Assembly: GCF_003334385.1 (NCBI RefSeq)
Contig: NZ_QOWN01000041.1
Reading direction: 5' to 3' (one strand)
Length of the DNA stretch: 38,687 nucleotides
From: Escherichia coli
GTDB lineage: Bacteria > Pseudomonadota > Gammaproteobacteria > Enterobacterales > Enterobacteriaceae
Part shown: piece after piece, positions 3,296 to 20,462 of the stretch
Layout: each line of letters begins with the position of its first letter
Numbering within the stretch: position 1 is the stretch's first letter
The notes under the pieces: model-generated
The model's input: only the letters and a program-made list of their open reading frames with translations
What the model was told of the DNA's origin: nothing
Databases searched by the model: none
Program-made: the position numbers and the translations under genes

Positions 3296-3410
3296 CCTCT
3301 TAAACTATCCCACTAATAATCATGCTTACTTAAGTCAAATTAACCACACTTAGTTAAACAGCCATAAATCCCTAATAAAAATGTATGAATATGAAAAACC
3401 ATACGATATT

Positions 3411-3446
3411 CGCTGTCACCGAAAAATAATTACGATGGGCTATACT
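3411..3446 (+). promoter_or_regulatory. candidate sigma-S-type promoter upstream of dosC (-10 cTATACT)
   Basis: gggCTATACTct at 3439-3446 resembles a sigma-S -10 with a -13 C; no good -35; would give a ~160-nt leader. Confidence 0.25.
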
Positions 3447-3606
3447 CTTCTGAAGAACAGTAGCGTAGATTGAAACTGTCCTAAATCGCTTATTTCTTTT
3501 CAGTATATCTTCATATTTCAGGAGAATATGGTGCAGTTAGTCGATCTCGCACGTTGCGTTTCATTTTGATTCCGTCTGATTTCCCAGCCTTATAAGGGTG
3601 TGAATT

Positions 3607-4989: not shown

Positions 4990-5013
4990 ATGCGCCAGGA
5001 TGCAGAGGTAATC

Positions 5014-5163
5014 ATGAAGCTAACCGATGCGGATAATGCCGCCGATGGCATTTTTTTCCCCGCCCTTGAGCAAAATATGATGTTTACGATGCGTATCGCC
5101 CACAACAAGCACAGGCGATGTTGTGGCAAGCCTGCCCAGACCCGCAATATGTTGTTGATGTGA
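5014..5163 (+). pseudogene. dosP: dosP 5' remnant: first 23 codons of dosP, then out-of-frame read into ddpX sequence (49-codon ORF)
   Basis: RBS gaggt plus ATG 25 nt after the dosC stop; MKLTDADNAADGIFFPALEQNMM matches the DosP N-terminus as recalled; from codon 24 the nucleotides are ddpX sequence in a different frame; stop at 5161-5163. Confidence 0.7.
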
Positions 5164-5468
5164 CGGTCGGTTCTAATCACAGCCGTGGCACGGCGATCGA
5201 CCTGACGCTTCGTGATGAGCACGGGAACATCCTCGATATGGGCGCAGGGTTCGATGAAATGCACGAGCGCTCCCATGCCTATCACCCTTCCGTCCCGCCC
5301 GCCGCTCAGCGCAATCGGCTGTTGCTGAATGCGATAATGACTGGTGGCGGTTTTGTCGGTATCTCCAGCGAATGGTGGCACTTCGAATTACCCCAGGCAG
5401 CGAGTTACCCTCTGCTCGCTGATCAATTCTCTTGTTTTATATCCCCTGGCACACAGCACGTCAGTTAA
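5085..5468 (+). pseudogene. ddpX: ddpX 3' remnant (D-Ala-D-Ala dipeptidase, VanX family) lacking about the first 60-75 codons
   Basis: ddpX-frame translation YDAYRPQQAQAMLWQACPDPQYVVDVTVGSNHSRGTAIDL...WWHFELPQ...; an in-frame TGA at 5067-5069 sits upstream and there is no start codon or RBS for a full-length product. Confidence 0.75.
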
Positions 5469-5481
5469 TCAGGAAACTGTC

Positions 5482-7032
5482 ATGAAGAGATCGATATCGT
5501 TTCGTCCCACATTGCTCGCGCTCGTCCTTGCCACAAATTTCCCGGTTGCGCACGCCGCCGTACCAAAAGATATGCTGGTGATTGGTAAGGCCGCCGATCC
5601 ACAAACCCTCGACCCGGCGGTAACAATAGATAATAACGACTGGACAGTGACCTACCCGTCTTATCAGCGGCTGGTTCAGTACAAAACGGACGGTGATAAA
5701 GGCTCAACCGACGTTGAAGGCGATCTGGCAAGTAGCTGGAAAGCGTCTGACGATCAAAAAGAGTGGACGTTCACCCTGAAAGATAATGCTAAATTTGCCG
5801 ATGGCACACCTGTCACTGCCGAAGCAGTAAAACTTTCTTTTGAGCGGCTACTAAAAATCGGCCAGGGGCCAGCAGAAGCATTTCCCAAAGATTTAAAGAT
5901 TGATGCTCCCGACGAACATACGGTGAAGTTTACCCTTAGCCAACCATTCGCACCGTTCCTCTACACGCTGGCGAATGACGGTGCATCCATTATCAATCCG
6001 GCGGTCTTAAAGGAACATGCAGCGGATGATGCTCGCGGCTTCCTCGCGCAAAATACCGCCGGTTCCGGACCATTTATGCTGAAAAGCTGGCAAAAAGGTC
6101 AGCAATTAGTTCTGGTGCCAAATCCGCATTACCTAGGCAATAAACCGAACTTCAAACGGGTATCGGTAAAAATTATTGGTGAAAGTGCCTCCCGTCGCCT
6201 GCAGCTCTCCCGTGGCGACATTGACATTGCCGATGCGCTGCCGGTGGATCAACTCAACGCCCTGAAGCAGGAAAATAAAGTCAATGTGGCAGAGTATCCG
6301 TCACTGCGCGTTACCTATCTGTATCTGAATAACAGCAAAGCGCCTCTTAATCAGGCGGATCTGCGTCGGGCCATTTCCTGGTCTACCGATTATCAGGGCA
6401 TGGTTAACGGCATTCTGAGTGGTAACGGAAAACAGATGCGCGGCCCGATTCCGGAAGGCATGTGGGGCTACGATGCGACGGCAATGCAATACAACCATGA
6501 CGAAACGAAAGCCAAAGCCGAATGGGATAAAGTGACGAGCAAACCCACCAGCCTGACGTTTCTCTACTCCGATAACGATCCGAACTGGGAGCCTATTGCT
6601 CTGGCGACACAATCCAGTCTCAACAAGCTGGGCATCATTGTGAAGCTGGAAAAGCTGGCGAACGCCACCATGCGCGACAGAGTGGGTAAAGGTGATTACG
6701 ACATTGCGATTGGCAACTGGAGTCCGGATTTTGCCGACCCGTATATGTTTATGAATTACTGGTTTGAGTCAGACAAAAAAGGTCTGCCGGGTAACCGCTC
6801 GTTCTATGAAAACAGTGAGGTCGATAAGTTACTGCGCAATGCGCTTGCGACCACCGACCAGACGCAGCGTACCCGGGACTACCAGCAGGCACAGAAAATC
6901 GTCATTGATGACGCTGCTTATGTGTACCTGTTCCAGAAAAACTACCAACTGGCGATGAACAAAGAGGTGAAAGGCTTTGTGTTCAATCCCATGCTGGAAC
7001 AGGTCTTCAATATCAATACCATGAGTAAATAA
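5482..7032 (+). CDS. ddpA: periplasmic D,D-dipeptide-binding protein (ABC transporter substrate-binding)
   Basis: 516-aa product from ATG 5482 (RBS aggaaa), with signal peptide MKRSISFRPTLLALVLATNFPVAHA; the ORF-track start at 5344 is an upstream in-frame extension. Confidence 0.92.
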   Translation: MKRSISFRPTLLALVLATNFPVAHAAVPKDMLVIGKAADPQTLDPAVTIDNNDWTVTYPSYQRLVQYKTDGDKGSTDVEGDLASSWKASDDQKEWTFTLKDNAKFADGTPVTAEAVKLSFERLLKIGQGPAEAFPKDLKIDAPDEHTVKFTLSQPFAPFLYTLANDGASIINPAVLKEHAADDARGFLAQNTAGSGPFMLKSWQKGQQLVLVPNPHYLGNKPNFKRVSVKIIGESASRRLQLSRGDIDIADALPVDQLNALKQENKVNVAEYPSLRVTYLYLNNSKAPLNQADLRRAISWSTDYQGMVNGILSGNGKQMRGPIPEGMWGYDATAMQYNHDETKAKAEWDKVTSKPTSLTFLYSDNDPNWEPIALATQSSLNKLGIIVKLEKLANATMRDRVGKGDYDIAIGNWSPDFADPYMFMNYWFESDKKGLPGNRSFYENSEVDKLLRNALATTDQTQRTRDYQQAQKIVIDDAAYVYLFQKNYQLAMNKEVKGFVFNPMLEQVFNINTMSK

Positions 7033-15280: not shown

Positions 15281-15565
15281 ATGAAAATGGCCAATCATCC
15301 CCGCCCGGGGGACATTATTCAGGAATCACTGGACGAACTTAATGTCAGCCTGCGCGAGTTTGCCAGAGCAATGGAAATTGCTCCCTCAACGGCAAGCCGA
15401 TTGCTGACAGGAAAAGCAGCTTTGACGCCAGAAATGGCGATTAAACTTTCCGTGGTGATCGGCAGTTCGCCGCAAATGTGGCTGAATCTGCAAAACGCCT
15501 GGAGTCTGGCAGAGGCAGAAAAAACAGTGGATGTGTCGCGATTACGCCGTCTGGTTACGCAATAA
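15281..15565 (+). CDS. yddM: Xre/HigA-like helix-turn-helix DNA-binding protein
   Basis: 94-aa product [45 protein letters not shown]...; HTH motif evident; start chosen at the internal ATG by recollection of YddM length. Confidence 0.75.
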
Positions 15566-15617
15566 AAAAATGGCACTTTATAAAGCGCCATTTAGAACTG
15601 ATGACAAACGCAACATT

Positions 15618-15715
15618 GCCTGATGCGCTACGCTTATCAGGCCTACACGTTCACTGCAATCTATTGGATTTGAAGGGTTTTCATGCCGGATAAGGCGTTC
15701 ACGCCGCATCCGGCA
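15618..15715. repeat. BIME: two inverted REP elements
   Basis: gcctgatgcgctacgcttatcaggcctac and tgccggataaggcgttcacgccgcatccggca; canonical REP sequences. Confidence 0.85.
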
Positions 15716-15744
15716 TGAACAAAGCCTACGTTGTCTACAATATG

Positions 15745-15776
15745 AAAATGGCGCCTTTTACAGCGCCATTTTCAGC
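15745..15776. terminator. bidirectional terminator between yddM (+) and fdnI (-)
   Basis: aaaatggcgc / cttttaca / gcgccatttt; A/T runs on both sides. Confidence 0.55.
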
Positions 15777-15793: not shown

Positions 15794-16447
15794 TTATATC
15801 CCTTCTTCACTCTCTTTTTTCGCTTCTGCCTTCTCGATTTCACGATACCAGCGCGGATGGTGTTTCTTCGCCCAGCGACGACTTACCTTCCCTTCGATCA
15901 TCCCTTTAATCGATCCTTTCACCCAAAATGCCATATACATATGGATCAGGATGGCGTGGATCAGGATGATACCCGCAGCCGCGTGGATCAGCAGGCTGTA
16001 GCGAACAACCTGCATCGGGAAGTACTGCGCAAAGTACGGACGCCAGATAATCACCCCGGTCACCAGCAGCACGAAAATCATGCTCATGATCGACCAGAAC
16101 ATCATCTTTTGCCCGGCGTTGTACTTACCGACATCCGCCACTTTATGCTCATTGCCTTTCAATACTTCGACAATGTTCAACAGCCACGGAATATCTTTCT
16201 TATCCGGGATGTTGTGATGCACAAAACGCACAAACATAAACATCAGTGCGACGAAAATCGCAATGCCGAAGAACGGGTGCAAAATGCGTCCCATCTGCGG
16301 CGTACCGAAGGTTTGCGTCAGCCATTGCAGCGTCGGGAAGAAGAACGAAATCCCGGACAGCGCCACCAGGAAGAAGCAAATCACCACGGTCCAGTGACAG
16401 GCGCGATCAATAAATTTGGTGCGCACAATCATTTTCGACTTACTCAT
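15794..16447 (-). CDS. fdnI: formate dehydrogenase-N gamma subunit (cytochrome b556)
   Basis: 217-aa membrane product [26 protein letters not shown]...; overlaps fdnH by 8 nt. Confidence 0.93.
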
Positions 16448-17324
16448 GATGATCCTCCTCGTCATCGTCCACTTCCTTATTCGGGCCAATACCGATGTAG
16501 TGGAAAATCAACCCGGCAAAAGTGGCAATAAAGCCAGCCGCTGCCAGCGGTTTCAACGCGCCTTTCCACAGGCTTACCGAGGTGTCGATCTTCGGATCTT
16601 TCGGCAGACCGTGATACAGCTCCGGCTGATCGGCGTGATGCAGCACGTACATAACGTGCGTACCACCGACCCCTTCCGGGTTGTAGACGCCAGCATGTTC
16701 GTAACCACGCGCTTTCAGTTTCGCCACGCGCTGTTCCGCCAGCTCCAGCATCTCCTTCTTGGTGCCGAAGTGGATAGCCCCGGTCGGACAGGTTTTCACA
16801 CAAGCCGGTTCCTGGCCGACGCTGACGCGATCGACGCAGAGCGTGCATTTATATACCCGGTTATCCTCTTTGTTGAGGCGCGGAATATTAAACGGACACC
16901 CGGCAATGCAGTAACCACAGCCGATGCAGTTTTCCGACTGGAAATCGACAATCCCGTTAGCGTACTGAATGATTGCACCAGCAGACGGGCACGCCTTCAG
17001 GCAGCCGGGATCTTCACAGTGCATACAGCCGTCTTTACGGATCAGCCACTCCAGCTTGCCGTTCTGTTCGGTTTCGCTAAAGCGCATCACCGTCCAGGAC
17101 TTGGCGCTCAGATCGGCGGGGTTATCGTAAACCCCGACGCAGTGCCCCACTTCATCACGGATGTCGTTCCACTCCGAACACGCCACCTGACAGGCTTTAC
17201 AGCCGATACAGGTGGAAACGTCGATAAGTTTTGCGACTTCTGCTTTGTAATCACGCACCTGAGAAGGCGGCGTGATGGAGTTAGTTGCGGACCTTTTGAT
17301 AATGTCCTGCGTTTCCATAGCCAT
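16440..17324 (-). CDS. fdnH: formate dehydrogenase-N beta subunit (4x[4Fe-4S])
   Basis: 294-aa ORF with multiple CxxCxxCxxxCP ferredoxin motifs. Confidence 0.93.
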
Positions 17325-17336
17325 CTGTTCGCCCCC

Positions 17337-20300
17337 TTACGCCTGCTCGATGTTGACTAAGAACGCTTTATATTCCGGCGTTTGCGAGTTTGCATCACCG
17401 ACATTCGGCGTCAGAGTGTTAGCGATATAACCTTTACGCGCGACACCCTCAAAGCCCCAGTGGATTGGAATACCCACCGTTTCAACCTGCTGACCATTTA
17501 CATTCAGCGGTTTCAGACGACGCGTTACCACAGCCACCGCGCGGATAAAGCCACGCTTGCTGGAGACAGTGACACGATCGCCATTATTAATGCCTTTCGC
17601 CGCCGCCAGCGTTTCGCTGATTTCCACAAACTGTTCCGGCTGAGCAATTGCGTTGAGCAATGCGTGCTTGGTCCAGGTGTGGAAGTGCTCGGTCAGACGA
17701 TAGGTCGTACCCACATACGGGAACTGCTCTTTTTTACCCATCCGCAGCGCGTCTTGTTCATACAGACGAACAACCGGGTTAGACACCACGTTCGGATGCA
17801 GCGGGTTAGTGCCCAGCGGCGTTTCAATCGGCTCGTAGTGTTCCGGGAACGGACCTTCCGCCATTTTGTTGATGGCAAACAGGCGTCCCATCCCTTCCGG
17901 CTGCATGATAAACGGCCCGGTTGGCGTACCCGGTGCGGCATTGCCGAAGTCAGGAATATCGTTACCCGTCCACTTGCTGCCGTTCCACTGGATCAGCATC
18001 CGTTTCGGATCCCACGGTTTACCGTTGATATCCGCCGAAGCACGGTTGTACAGCACGCGACGGTTGAGCGGCCACGCCCAGGCCCATCCCAGCGTATTCC
18101 CCAGACCGGACGGGTCGGAGTTATCGCGGTTAGCCATCTGGTTGCCCTGCTCTGTCCAGCTACCGGTGTAGATCCAGCAAGAAGATGCGGTTGTACCGTC
18201 ATCACGCAGATGCGCAAAGCTACTCAGCAACTGACCTTTCTTCGCAATAAGCACGCCATTAGCGTCATAGAGATCTTCCAGCGCGTAGCCGTTGTTCTCT
18301 TTAGCCACTTCGTCAGATTGCGGTTCGTGCGGCTGCTTGTAGTTCCAGCTCATCTTCATCAGCGGTTCTACGCCTTTACCACCTTCGGACTGGTACAGCT
18401 CGCGCAGATGATGGTAGATACCCGCCAGAATTTCACCGTCGTTACGCGCTTCGCCCGGCGCGTCCTGACCTTTCCAGTGCCACTGCAACCAGCGACCGGA
18501 GTTAGCGATAGAACCATCTTCTTCAGCAAAGCAGGTCGAAGGCAGACGGAATACTTCAGTCTGAATAGACGCCGGATCGACATCGTTCGACTCACCGTGG
18601 TTCTGCCAGAAGGTAGAGGTTTCAGTCACCAGCGGATCGATAACCACCATGTACTTCAGCTTGCTCAGGCAGCTCACCACTTTGTTTTTGTCCGGGAAGG
18701 ACGCAACCGGGTTAAAGCCCTGGCAGAAATAACCGGTGACTTTGCCTTCATCCATCATGTTGAAATACTTGATGACGTCGTAGGTCTGGTCCCACTTCGG
18801 CAGCCAGTCATAGCCCCAGTTGTTCTCTTTCTGCGCGGCATCGCCATAGAAAGATTTCATCAGGCTAACGAAGAACTTCGGATAGTTGCTCCAGTAGTTC
18901 ACCTGATCAGCCAGCGTCGCTTTCGGCGTGTTCGCTTCCAGATACGACTGCAAATCAACCTGTTTTTCTGACGGCAGCGTCAGATAACCTGGCAGGCTGG
19001 TAGAGAGCAGGCCTAAGTCAGTCAAGCCCTGAATGTTGGAGTGACCACGCAATGCGTTCACGCCGCCACCGGCCATACCCATGTTACCGAGCAGCAACTG
19101 GATCATCGCCATAGTACGGATGTTCTGCGCACCCACAGTGTGCTGCGTCCAGCCCAGCGCGTACAGGAAGGTGGTTGTGCGATCCGGTGCGCTGGTGGAG
19201 GCCAGCACTTCACACACTTTCAGGAAGTCGGCTTTTGGCGTACCGCAGATGTTTTCAACGACGTCCGGCGTGTAGCGGGAAACGTGCTCTTTCAGCAGGT
19301 TCCACACACAGCGCGGATGAGTCAGTGTTTCATCGCGTTTCGCATAGCCGTTTTCATCGAACTGATAGTTCCAGGACGATTTATCGTATTGACGTTTTTC
19401 AGCGTCGTAGCCGCTGAACAGACCGTCTTCGAAAGCAAAATCATCACGCACCAGCAGGCTGGCGTTGGTGTAATGCTTAACGTATTCGGCGTTGATTTTG
19501 TTGTTTTCGATCAGGTAGCGCAAAACGCCAGACAGGAACGTAATGTCCGTACCGGAACGAATAGGCGCGTAAATATCCGCCACAGAAGCGGTACGCGTAA
19601 AACGGGGATCGACAACGATCAAGGTTGCGTCGTTGTTGTTTTTCGCTTCCATCGCCCAGCGGAAACCGACGGGATGCGCTTCAGCAGCGTTACCGCCCAT
19701 CACCATCACGACGTTAGCGTTTTTGATATCCACCCAGTGGTTGGTCATCGCACCGCGACCAAATGTTGGAGCAAGACTTGCTACCGTTGGTCCGTGTCAG
19801 ACGCGCGCCTGGTTGTCTACCGCCAGCATCCCGAGGGAGCGGGCAAATTTCTGGGTCAGCATCCCGGTTTCGTTGCTGGCACCGGAGGCACACAGCATAC
19901 CGGTAGAAAGCCAACGGTTTACCGTTACGCCCTGCTCGTTCTTTTCAATAAAGTTGGCGTCACGGTCAGCTTTCATCAGCTTCGCAATACGGGAGAATGC
20001 TTCTTCCCAGCTAATGCGCTGCCATTTGTCAGAACCTGGCGCACGATATTCCGGGTAGCGCAGACGGTTTTCACTGTTGACGTAATCCAGCAAACCGGCC
20101 CCTTTCGGGCACAGCGCACCACGGCTTACCGGATGATCCGGGTCACCTTCAATGTGATAAATCGCTTCTCTGGCGTTTTTTGCGCCATCACCCAGGCTAT
20201 ACATCAATAGCCCGCAACCTACGGAACAGTATGTGCAGGTGTTACGGATCTCTTTAGCGCGTAATAATTTGTAGTTTCGCGCCTGAGCCAGTGCTTGCTT

Positions 20301-20384
20301 CGGGGCAAAGCCCAATGCCGCTACTGTTGTTCCAGCCATACCGCCCGCGCAGATTTTAAAAAATTGTCTGCGACTGACGTCCAT
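17337..20384 (-). CDS. fdnG: formate dehydrogenase-N alpha subunit, selenocysteine-containing (in-frame UGA at 19797-19799)
   Basis: Two ORF-track pieces (17337-19748 and 19797-20384) are in the same frame; translation reads ...AVDNQARV-U-HGPTVASLAPTFGRGAMTNHWV...; Tat signal MDVSRRQFFKICAGG; total 1015 codons plus stop. Confidence 0.93.
19752..19796 (-). promoter_or_regulatory. SECIS element directing Sec insertion at the fdnG UGA
   Basis: mRNA UGA-CACGGACCAACGGUAGCAAGUCUUGCUCCAACAUUUGGUC folds as a stem-loop immediately 3' of the UGA, like the fdhF/fdnG SECIS as recalled. Confidence 0.7.
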
Positions 20385-20448: not shown

Positions 20449-20462
20449 TTGCGCGAAATCAA
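20449..20462 (-). promoter_or_regulatory. putative FNR box upstream of fdnG
   Basis: Minus-strand TTGAT-TTCG-CGCAA (consensus TTGAT-N4-ATCAA), centred about 71 nt upstream of the fdnG ATG. Confidence 0.4.

Follow-up and report, generated by a model that had tools for sequence, protein, structure and literature searches.

Does the TGA at positions 19797-19799 (minus strand) of this stretch end a gene, or is it read as selenocysteine inside a longer one? The window, i.e. the whole stretch of 38,687 nucleotides that was analysed, is a segment of the Escherichia coli chromosome extending from gadB to RHS, with 99.95% identity to strain ML35. The initial annotation had placed the codon in fdnG and described the reading frame as running straight through it, between formate dehydrogenase sequences. 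Translation bears this out: the frame 20384..17337 (minus strand) is a single one of 1015 codons, in which UGA-196 is the sole internal stop. At the site the minus strand reads ...CAG GCG CGC GTC TGA CAC GGA CCA ACG GTA GCA AGT CTT GCT..., translated as AVDNQARV before the stop and HGPTVASLAPT after it. The features of the gene and its operon are the following:

17337..20384, minus strand: fdnG, alpha (catalytic, molybdopterin) subunit of formate dehydrogenase-N, from its translation, 1kqf_A, RefSeq and TIGR01553
20375..20355, minus strand: twin-arginine signal motif SRRQFFK, FdnG residues 4-10, from the translation
19797..19799, minus strand: in-frame UGA, selenocysteine codon 196 of fdnG, by direct reading and from X196 of 1kqf_A
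16440..17324, minus strand: fdnH, beta (iron-sulfur) subunit of formate dehydrogenase-N, a 294-aa ORF, from the annotation of near-identical genomes
15794..16447, minus strand: fdnI, gamma (cytochrome b) subunit of formate dehydrogenase-N, from the annotation of near-identical genomes

The identity of the gene was established from structure, annotation and context. The translation, with an X placed at position 196, was used as query against PDB sequences; read through the TGA, FdnG aligns end to end with 1kqf_A (residues 1-1015) with at least two substitutions, L342F and K1014Q, the latter taken from the match line of the alignment. The TGA sits opposite residue 196 of 1kqf_A, an X in the PDB sequence, which we take to be selenocysteine. 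RefSeq annotates near-identical genomes with a single fdnG CDS of 3048 nt spanning the TGA, and the gene order yddG, fdnGHI, yddM-adhP-maeA is that of annotated near-identical E. coli genomes. The operon partners and the Tat motif of formate dehydrogenase-N are both present, fdnH and fdnI following fdnG on the same strand in the same operon, and the translation also contains an N-terminal Cys cluster, CTYCSVGC.

Some other properties of the window were recorded. It shows an apparent 2784-bp dosP-ddpX deletion, with a junction at 5082|5083 that was found in none of 5426 complete genomes. ML35 and several other genomes are about 99.95-100% identical to the window and all have dosP, which the window lacks; in SCU-104 the fdnG region is 100% identical to that of the window, ddpAB are deleted and one intergenic region has an extra 178 bp. 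A scan for FNR boxes upstream of fdnG gave one candidate, at 20449-20462, which has two mismatches; over the window such boxes number 37, against 23.9 +/- 4.7 in shuffled sequences, a marginal excess reached by 1 shuffle out of 100.

The gene was said to be split in two by naive gene callers, and this is what the list of open reading frames contains, the second frame opening with an ATG 48 nt past the TGA:

19797..20384, minus strand: false 'ORF 1', 195 aa followed by UGA, covering TIGR01553 positions 1-194
17337..19748, minus strand: false 'ORF 2', 803 aa from an internal start at Met-213, covering TIGR01553 positions 212-1008 of 1009

Taken at face value, this mechanical call would make the TGA a genuine stop, with fdnG either a pseudogene carrying a nonsense mutation or a pair of genes for proteins of 195 and 803 residues. 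We give this reading a vanishingly small probability. TIGR01553 is an NCBIfam equivalog model with a cut-off of 814 bits; the C-terminal piece exceeds this by itself (1280 bits), the N-terminal piece gives 279.5 bits, and the match takes in both. The two pieces are consecutive parts of one profile and are therefore not separate genes; the intervening 17 residues keep to the frame and are conserved. The crystallised protein (1kqf_A) is moreover a single chain of 1015 residues, and these two lines, profile coordinates and structure, rule out the two-gene reading. Since the frame is continuous, no ribosome-binding context is required for the second piece. Nor does the codon behave as a nonsense mutation: a 71-nt stretch including it has matches in 5426 of 5426 E. 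coli genomes, with a median of two matches per genome, and among the 5434 matching E. coli records a single one falls below 99% identity; the U-HGPTV context is found again at 104 loci of distant bacteria. For K-12, a full-length selenium-containing FdnG of about 113 kDa has been reported (Berg et al. 1991, as cited in PMC13188914).

If the codon is recoded, a signal should lie on its 3' side. It had been proposed that the 40-45 nt immediately downstream form a stem-loop like those of fdhF and fdnG, and such an element is found there:

19744..19802, minus strand: bacterial SECIS, full match to Rfam SECIS_3 (RF01989), model positions 1-59, within the V195-U196-HGPTVASLAPTFGRGAMT coding sequence
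19754..19796, minus strand: complete stem-loop, lower helix (19796..19787 with 19762..19754) included, fold of -12.7 kcal/mol
19768..19785, minus strand: apical hairpin GGUAGCAAGUCUUGCUCC, putative SelB-binding module, on which the minimum free energy (MFE) and Rfam structures agree

The covariance model RF01989 matches the 59 nt with 84.3 bits, above its gathering threshold of 63 bits (E 8.6e-19 over the whole window), and it is the sole Rfam match in the window. The MFE fold and the Rfam structure describe the same hairpin, which begins at 19796, the first nucleotide past the UGA; the paired region with its codon (19754-19799) lies within 2 nt of the span first noted (19752-19799). The apical hairpin is made of two G-C pairs, a bulged U (U19783, unpaired in both the MFE and Rfam structures), a 5-bp stem and a GUC loop (19777..19775). 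Its upper stem thus amounts to 5 bp plus 2 bp across the bulged U. A spacer of 11 nt (CACGGACCAAC) separates the UGA from the first G of GGU, as long as that of fdhF (CACGGCCCAUC). Liu and co-workers are said to have placed, in 1998, the start of the E. coli apical hairpin 11 nt after the UGA. The lower helix serves to space the apical hairpin from the UGA.

The element was compared with the bacterial SECIS model of PMC13188914, whose Fig. 2 legend gives an apical loop of 3-9 nt, an upper stem of 4-16 bp and a G in the first two loop positions, together with a spacing of 16-37 nt from UGA to loop and an MFE of -7.5 kcal/mol or lower. All four constraints hold at fdnG, with a 3-nt loop on a 7-bp upper stem, G as first loop nucleotide, 19 nt between UGA and loop, and an MFE of -12.7 kcal/mol for the 43 nt from 19796 to 19754 (-13.8 kcal/mol for 48 nt including the UGA). 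Compared with shuffled sequences this stability is unremarkable: z-scores are -1.1 (61 nt), -1.4 (48 nt), -2.1 (43 nt) and 0.0 (71 nt), and 8 to 27 of 200 shuffles fold as well as the site, a figure that rises to 91 with the 71-nt stretch. As the z-scores are weak, the SECIS is established by the covariance model and by the comparative data.

The fdhF (formate dehydrogenase-H) SECIS, the prototype dissected by experiment, had been suggested as a reference, and the comparison shows a common architecture. Both elements are in the same register, with an 11-nt spacer (beginning CACGGNCC), and both consist of UGA, spacer, GG, bulged U, a stem of 4-5 bp, a loop containing G-U-C, and CC. They differ in the stem (UGCA/UGCA in fdhF, AGCAA/UUGCU in fdnG), in the loop (GGUC in fdhF, GUC or AGUCU in fdnG) and in the 3' strand of the lower helix, which is unlike and has a 5-nt internal loop; the host protein of the fdhF element is also different, being the cytoplasmic FDH-H of 715 residues with Sec140. 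In fdhF, breaking the stem by mutation reportedly abolishes selenocysteine insertion, and re-forming it by compensatory mutation reportedly brings insertion back. PMC4489274 cites fdhF mutagenesis for the bulged U and the GGUC loop as functional determinants, and the minimal SelB-binding fdhF hairpin, AUCGGUUGCAGGUCUGCACC (PMC10945757), has the architecture of the fdnG apical hairpin. In the Rfam classification the fdnG element is of type SECIS_3 and not SECIS_2: the fdhF-type family SECIS_2 (RF01988) scores 28.8 bits on it for a threshold of 70 and was rejected.

Likeness to the fdnG SECIS was in fact an understatement, as the element is that of fdnG itself, and the remark that the site is not novel also stands. 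It is the K-12 fdnG Sec196 SECIS (PDB 1KQF/1KQG; RF01989), matching all 59 positions of the Rfam model; for K-12 fdnG, PMC13188914 credits selenium insertion to Berg et al. 1991 (J Biol Chem 266:22380). The strain-level differences from 1kqf_A, L342F and K1014Q, lie elsewhere in the protein and the recoding site shows none. The element is also identical to that of the K-12 paralog fdoG, with which one more feature is shared:

19732..19802, minus strand: 71-nt run 100% identical between fdnG of the window and fdoG of K-12, from a codon-aligned comparison

This run is the longest identical stretch between the two genes in the codon-aligned comparison, the runner-up being 36 nt, and fdnG and fdoG share 74.8% of their nucleotides overall. 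It includes the 51 nt from the UGA onward. Like fdnG, fdoG (formate dehydrogenase-O) has selenocysteine at codon 196 and an element of the SECIS_3 family; it differs in belonging to another locus (fdoGHI-fdhE) and, outside the SECIS, in sequence (74.8% nucleotide and 76.9% amino acid identity).

Such conservation 3' of the UGA could also come from protein constraint on the active-site peptide combined with gene conversion among the two paralogs, which would leave the hairpin incidental. The peptide HGPTVASLAPTFGRGAMT is indeed highly conserved, a conversion tract could explain why the identity of the paralogs continues 12 nt past the Rfam model, and the weak fold z-scores agree with an incidental structure. 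Synonymous positions are left free by the protein, yet from codon 196 to codon 213 all 18 of 18 codons are the same in fdnG and fdoG, against a background same-codon rate of 0.61. The question is then whether synonymous changes in more distant genes respect the pairing, as a structural constraint would require and a peptide constraint would not. With the comparative data given below, we consider protein constraint with conversion highly improbable as an account of the hairpin.

The comparison set comprised 104 FdnG-type loci, all from other species, and pairing was scored on 69 distinct homologous sequences. Among the 104 loci the bulged U is invariant, all 7 apical pairs are formed in 100, and the apical loop reads GUC at 87 loci and GUU at 15; chance matches to the search pattern (n=6) form only 2-5 of the 7 pairs. 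Over the 69 sequences, pairing in the apical helix reaches 97.7% and compensatory changes occur at 4 of its 7 pairs. They fall on third codon positions: columns 24/30 alternate between A-U, C-G and G-C, and columns 21/33 between G-C, A-U and C-G. Synonymous codons on the two sides of the apical stem are accordingly chosen in pairs, as GCA with CUU (74 cases), GCC with YUG (14), UCC with YUG (10) and GCG with CUC (4).

The pairwise nature of these changes was measured against shuffles. Double-sided changes number 47 cells, against 13.6 +/- 4.0 in shuffled data, and none of 500 shuffles reaches 47. The covariation score is 0.221 for 0.121 +/- 0.006 in shuffles (0 of 500 as high), and it drops to 0.05-0.09 with slid partners; sliding the 3' partner by 1-3 columns lowers the pairing from 90% to 27-50%. 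Codon choice driven by GC content, together with shared ancestry, could be behind part of the apparent covariation. Against such an effect, GCA and CUG never occur together, and at each varying pair the pairing fails in only 2 of 69 cells. The GC-rich genera Pseudomonas and Burkholderia, moreover, retain the A/U-ending stem codons GCA and CUU, which protein constraint with conversion leaves unexplained. The reading retained for the apical hairpin is that of a conserved RNA structure. The pairing of the lower helix is less well supported than that of the apical one, because it shows no double-sided change and is 84.4% paired across species.

Two of these observations, that the identity with fdoG runs 12 nt past the SECIS model (to 19732) and that the lower helix has a strongly conserved sequence but no compensatory changes, lead to a speculative proposal. 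The nucleotides beyond the putative SelB-binding hairpin might have a second, sequence-specific function rather than serving as a simple paired spacer, for example in contacts with the ribosomal mRNA entry channel or h16, or in tuning the competition with release factor 2. We regard this as very unlikely; protein constraint on the active-site peptide with a short gene-conversion tract accounts equally well for these observations.

The machinery for recoding is encoded elsewhere: no tRNA gene was found within the window and no sel gene in its annotated neighbourhood. In complete E. coli genomes the sel genes are essentially universal, selC being present in 5425 of 5426, selAB in 5426 of 5426 and selD in 5426 of 5426, a set which takes in the closest relatives ML35 and SCU-104.

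From the UGA within the frame, the protein's identity, the covariance match, the constraint on nucleotides, the compensation in the apical stem and the near-universal sel genes of E. coli, we conclude that the site is almost certainly E. coli fdnG's own signal for recoding UGA as selenocysteine. SelB binding, competition with release factor 2 (RF2) and selenocysteine as a molybdenum ligand are established parts of the E. coli system, and by analogy decoding would proceed as follows. UGA codon 196 would enter the A site with the 3' hairpin still folded. The apical part (GG/CC, bulged U, short stem and G-U-C loop) would bind the C-terminal domain of SelB, the specialised elongation factor, which would bring selenocysteyl-tRNA(Sec), encoded by selC and charged via SelA and SelD, together with GTP. 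The ternary complex thus tethered at the ribosome would allow the UGA to be decoded as selenocysteine in competition with RF2, and the hairpin would afterwards melt and be translated as HGPTVASLAPTFGRG. The expected outcome is one Tat-exported catalytic subunit of 1015 residues, in which Sec196 would ligate the Mo of the bis-MGD cofactor.

The fdnG recoding site is already known and ordinary: the classical selenoprotein genes of E. coli are three, fdnG, fdoG and fdhF. What is at stake is first annotation, as a caller blind to UGA recoding reports fdnG as a pseudogene or as two false ORFs; the correct annotation is one selenoprotein gene of 1015 codons with a transl_except at codon 196. The comparative data are also a textbook case of an RNA structure limiting the choice of synonymous codons within a coding region, with a 71-nt block frozen between paralogs and paired switches of synonymous codons across phyla.

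The fdnG frame (20384..17337, minus strand) was translated through the TGA at 19799..19797, where the strand reads CAG GCG CGC GTC TGA CAC GGA CCA ACG GTA GCA AGT CTT GCT CCA ACA TTT GGT CGC GGT GCG ATG ACC. Codon 196 is the sole internal stop of the 1015 codons (AVDNQARV*HGPTVASLAPT), and the HGPTV context directly follows it; the open frame through the TGA described in the initial annotation is borne out. As also anticipated there, mechanical ORF calling yields two ORFs for this gene, one of 195 aa at 19797..20384 and one of 803 aa at 17337..19748. Both match a single NCBIfam equivalog, the formate dehydrogenase-N subunit alpha model TIGR01553: the 195-aa piece covers profile positions 1-194 and the 803-aa piece 212-1008 of 1009, which makes them consecutive parts of one protein; the 17 positions between them correspond to selenocysteine (Sec) and the hairpin-encoded peptide. 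When residue 196 was set to X, the translated protein aligned with PDB 1kqf_A (the major subunit of nitrate-inducible formate dehydrogenase) along residues 1-1015 of each chain, with two substitutions (L342F and K1014Q) among the alignment positions listed, and the X196 of 1kqf_A lies opposite the TGA. Two separate genes at this locus are ruled out by this alignment and by the single profile spanning both pieces. Near-identical genomes carry a single 3048-nt fdnG CDS in RefSeq annotation.

The FdnG N-terminus contains a twin-arginine motif (SRRQFFK), and fdnH and fdnI lie downstream on the same strand. An FNR-box-like site, TTGATTTCGCGCAA (20449-20462, minus strand; TTGAT-N4-ATCAA with 2 mismatches), was observed in the gap separating fdnG from yddG, 65-78 nt 5' of the fdnG ATG. 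Its position would fit anaerobic induction of fdnGHI; the pattern occurs 37 times window-wide versus 23.9 +/- 4.7 in shuffles, and this site alone is not significant.

An Rfam scan of the whole window at the gathering threshold returned exactly one match, SECIS_3 (RF01989), at 19802..19744 on the minus strand (full-length, 84.3 bits for a threshold of 63, E 8.6e-19). The Rfam alignment gives the following elements:

19796..19787 paired with 19762..19754, minus strand: lower helix
19783, minus strand: bulged U, preceded by two G-C pairs
minus strand: 5-bp stem AGCAA/UUGCU
19777..19775, minus strand: loop GUC

The same structure was obtained as the ViennaRNA minimum-energy fold of 43-61 nt (-12.7 to -19.9 kcal/mol); folding and SECIS_3 match together confirm the predicted 3' stem-loop. 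Stability is unexceptional, with z-scores of -1.1 (61 nt), -1.4 (48 nt), -2.1 (43 nt) and 0.0 (71 nt), and folding energy by itself would therefore not prove a SECIS element. The bacterial SECIS model outlined in the Fig. 2 legend of PMC13188914 comprises a loop of 3-9 nt on an upper stem of 4-16 bp, a G in the first two loop positions, a UGA-to-loop distance of 16-37 nt and an MFE <= -7.5 kcal/mol; the fdnG hairpin agrees with 4/4 of these constraints as worded in that legend, its UGA-to-loop distance being 19 nt.

The element was then compared with those of fdoG and fdhF, taken from K-12. The fdoG SECIS is identical to that of the window across the 51 nt compared. The fdhF SECIS, with which the initial annotation had proposed a comparison, has the same register and architecture (UGA, 11-nt spacer, GG, bulged U, stem, loop, CC), but its stem is of 4 bp with a GGUC loop, and the sequences of the stem and 3' strand differ, which is why the fdhF-type model SECIS_2 gives only 28.8 bits on the fdnG element (threshold 70). 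PMC4489274 is the source for the importance of the bulged U and of the GGUC loop as determinants of SECIS function. The fdnG segment homologous to the minimal SelB-binding fdhF hairpin, as delimited in an excerpt of PMC10945757, is AACGGUAGCAAGUCUUGCUCC.

Nucleotide identity between window fdnG and K-12 fdoG is 74.8%, and amino-acid identity is 76.9%. The longest perfect run shared by the two genes, of 71 nt, falls on the SECIS (19802..19732), the next longest being 36 nt; codons 196-213 are identical in 18/18 cases, for a background probability of 0.61 of same-codon use at identical amino acids. The run reaches 12 nt past the 3' end of the SECIS_3 model, which could reflect added constraint or a short gene-conversion tract. 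Of 5434 matching E. coli records, all except one have this 71-mer at >=99% identity; the median is two sites per genome, the number that fdnG and fdoG together would give. Separately, 7-8 fdnG/SECIS match places in the E. coli genome collection are on plasmid-typed records.

A single scan of a species-representative genome collection with GCNCGNGTNTGACAYGGNCC gave at least 120 loci. Among the 120 matches listed, 104 are FdnG-type (QARV-U-HGPTV), 10 fdhF-type (CCARV-U-HGPSV) and 6 chance matches without FDH context. The listed FdnG-type loci provided 69 distinct ungapped 59-mers. Scored against the Rfam structure, these have 90.2% of cells paired (84.5 +/- 0.4 in shuffles), 47 cells show double-sided changes (13.6 +/- 4.0) and the covariation score is 0.221 (0.121), each value being reached by 0/500 shuffles. 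Pairing falls to 27-50% when the 3' partner is displaced by 1-3 columns. The apical helix carries the covariation signal, with 97.7% pairing and 4/7 pairs changed on both sides, e.g. columns 24/30 (A-U 42, C-G 22, G-C 3) and 21/33 (G-C 52, A-U 9, C-G 4); in the lower helix, pairing is 84.4% and double changes are absent. This helix-specific signal fits an apical hairpin acting as functional core above a lower part that would be mainly spacer. At the codon level, facing Ala/Ser and Leu codons co-switch in the 104 listed loci (GCA+CUU 74, GCC+YUG 14, GCG+CUC 4, UCC+YUG 10), GCA never being paired with CUG. In the same set the bulged U is invariant (104/104), the loop is GUC in 87, GUU in 15 and CUC in 2, and all 7 apical pairs form in 100/104; the six listed chance matches form 2-5 of 7. 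Two of the FdnG-type loci, both Desulfovibrio-type, L035 (Candidatus Desulfovibrio gallistercoris) and L078 (Mailhella sp.), with context HQARV-U-HGPTVPALAESFGRG, lie outside the SECIS_3 register (2-3 of 7 apical pairs, loop CUC); their SECIS hairpin is presumably another one, formed in a shifted register.

In the established mechanism of the E. coli system, the SelB-GTP-Sec-tRNA(Sec) complex uses the SelB C-terminal domain to bind the apical part of the SECIS when the UGA occupies the A site. Sec is inserted in successful competition with RF2, after which the hairpin is melted and itself translated. In the FdnGHI structure, Sec196 coordinates the Mo centre. No tRNA gene was found in the window, and no sel gene in its neighbourhood as annotated in near-identical genomes. 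K-12 queries against 5426 complete E. coli genomes matched selAB and selD in 5426/5426 and, by megablast, selC (tRNA-Sec) in 5425/5426, one genome giving no selC match. Given this near-universality, the source strain almost certainly has the required Sec-insertion machinery. One selC match of the collection is on a plasmid-typed record.

A 3.7-kb query around the site matched 5426/5426 complete E. coli genomes, with 100% identity in strain SCU-104 (annotated fdnG, fdnH, yddG). Over the first 25 kb of the window, identity is ~100% to ML35 and to several further genomes, and direct BLAST of the whole window on ML35 gave 99.95% identity in two blocks. Annotation of near-identical genomes gives the gene order:

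left part: gadB-gadC-digH-dosC-(dosP)-ddpXABCDF-osmC-bdm-sra-maeA-adhP-yddM
fdn operon and right part: fdnI-fdnH-fdnG, then yddG-yddL'-LRR'-narU-narZYWV-yddE-nhoA-yddH-pptA-IS-ydcD-RHS

From these matches and this order, the window is ordinary E. coli chromosomal DNA.

Several local variations were observed. A 239-bp segment in the digH/dosC gap (3340-3578), shared with ML35 and absent from SCU-104, probably represents a small insertion or repeat element between the two genes. The yddM/fdnI intergenic region (15560-15771) is variable and repeat-containing: ML35 is collinear with the window, SCU-104 is longer by 178 bp, and its two BLAST blocks overlap there by ~212 nt, as tandem or REP-like repeats might produce. 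According to the annotation of near-identical genomes, 21757-22032 and 22071-23401 hold a truncated porin pseudogene (yddL) and a frameshifted leucine-rich-repeat protein gene, with a corresponding split in the window ORF list (318-aa and 111-aa ORFs). From ML35/SCU-104 annotation, an intact ISAs1-like ISEc5 transposase gene adjoins a degraded ISAs1 copy with a frameshift and an internal stop (34833-35969 and 36055-37199), followed at the right end (including 37381-38687) by ydcD/yncO and an RHS core protein gene represented by its C-terminal end. Finally, 2784 bp of ML35 and other best-matching genomes are missing at 5082|5083 (context 5014-5744), from codon 24 of dosP, an oxygen-sensing c-di-GMP phosphodiesterase gene, to codon 66 of ddpX, i.e. 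nearly all of dosP and the ddpX 5' end. The dosP start is joined out of frame to ddpX, giving a 57-aa hybrid ORF (4990..5163), with no obvious microhomology at the junction. A 100-nt probe over the junction reached coverage >=80% in 0/5426 complete E. coli genomes; the deletion could be strain-specific, of laboratory origin, or an assembly artefact.

Frame, protein identity and SECIS_3 match support the reading of this site as a selenocysteine recoding site. It is the textbook fdnG selenocysteine codon with its SECIS, hence already known, and its sole practical importance is for correct gene calling.
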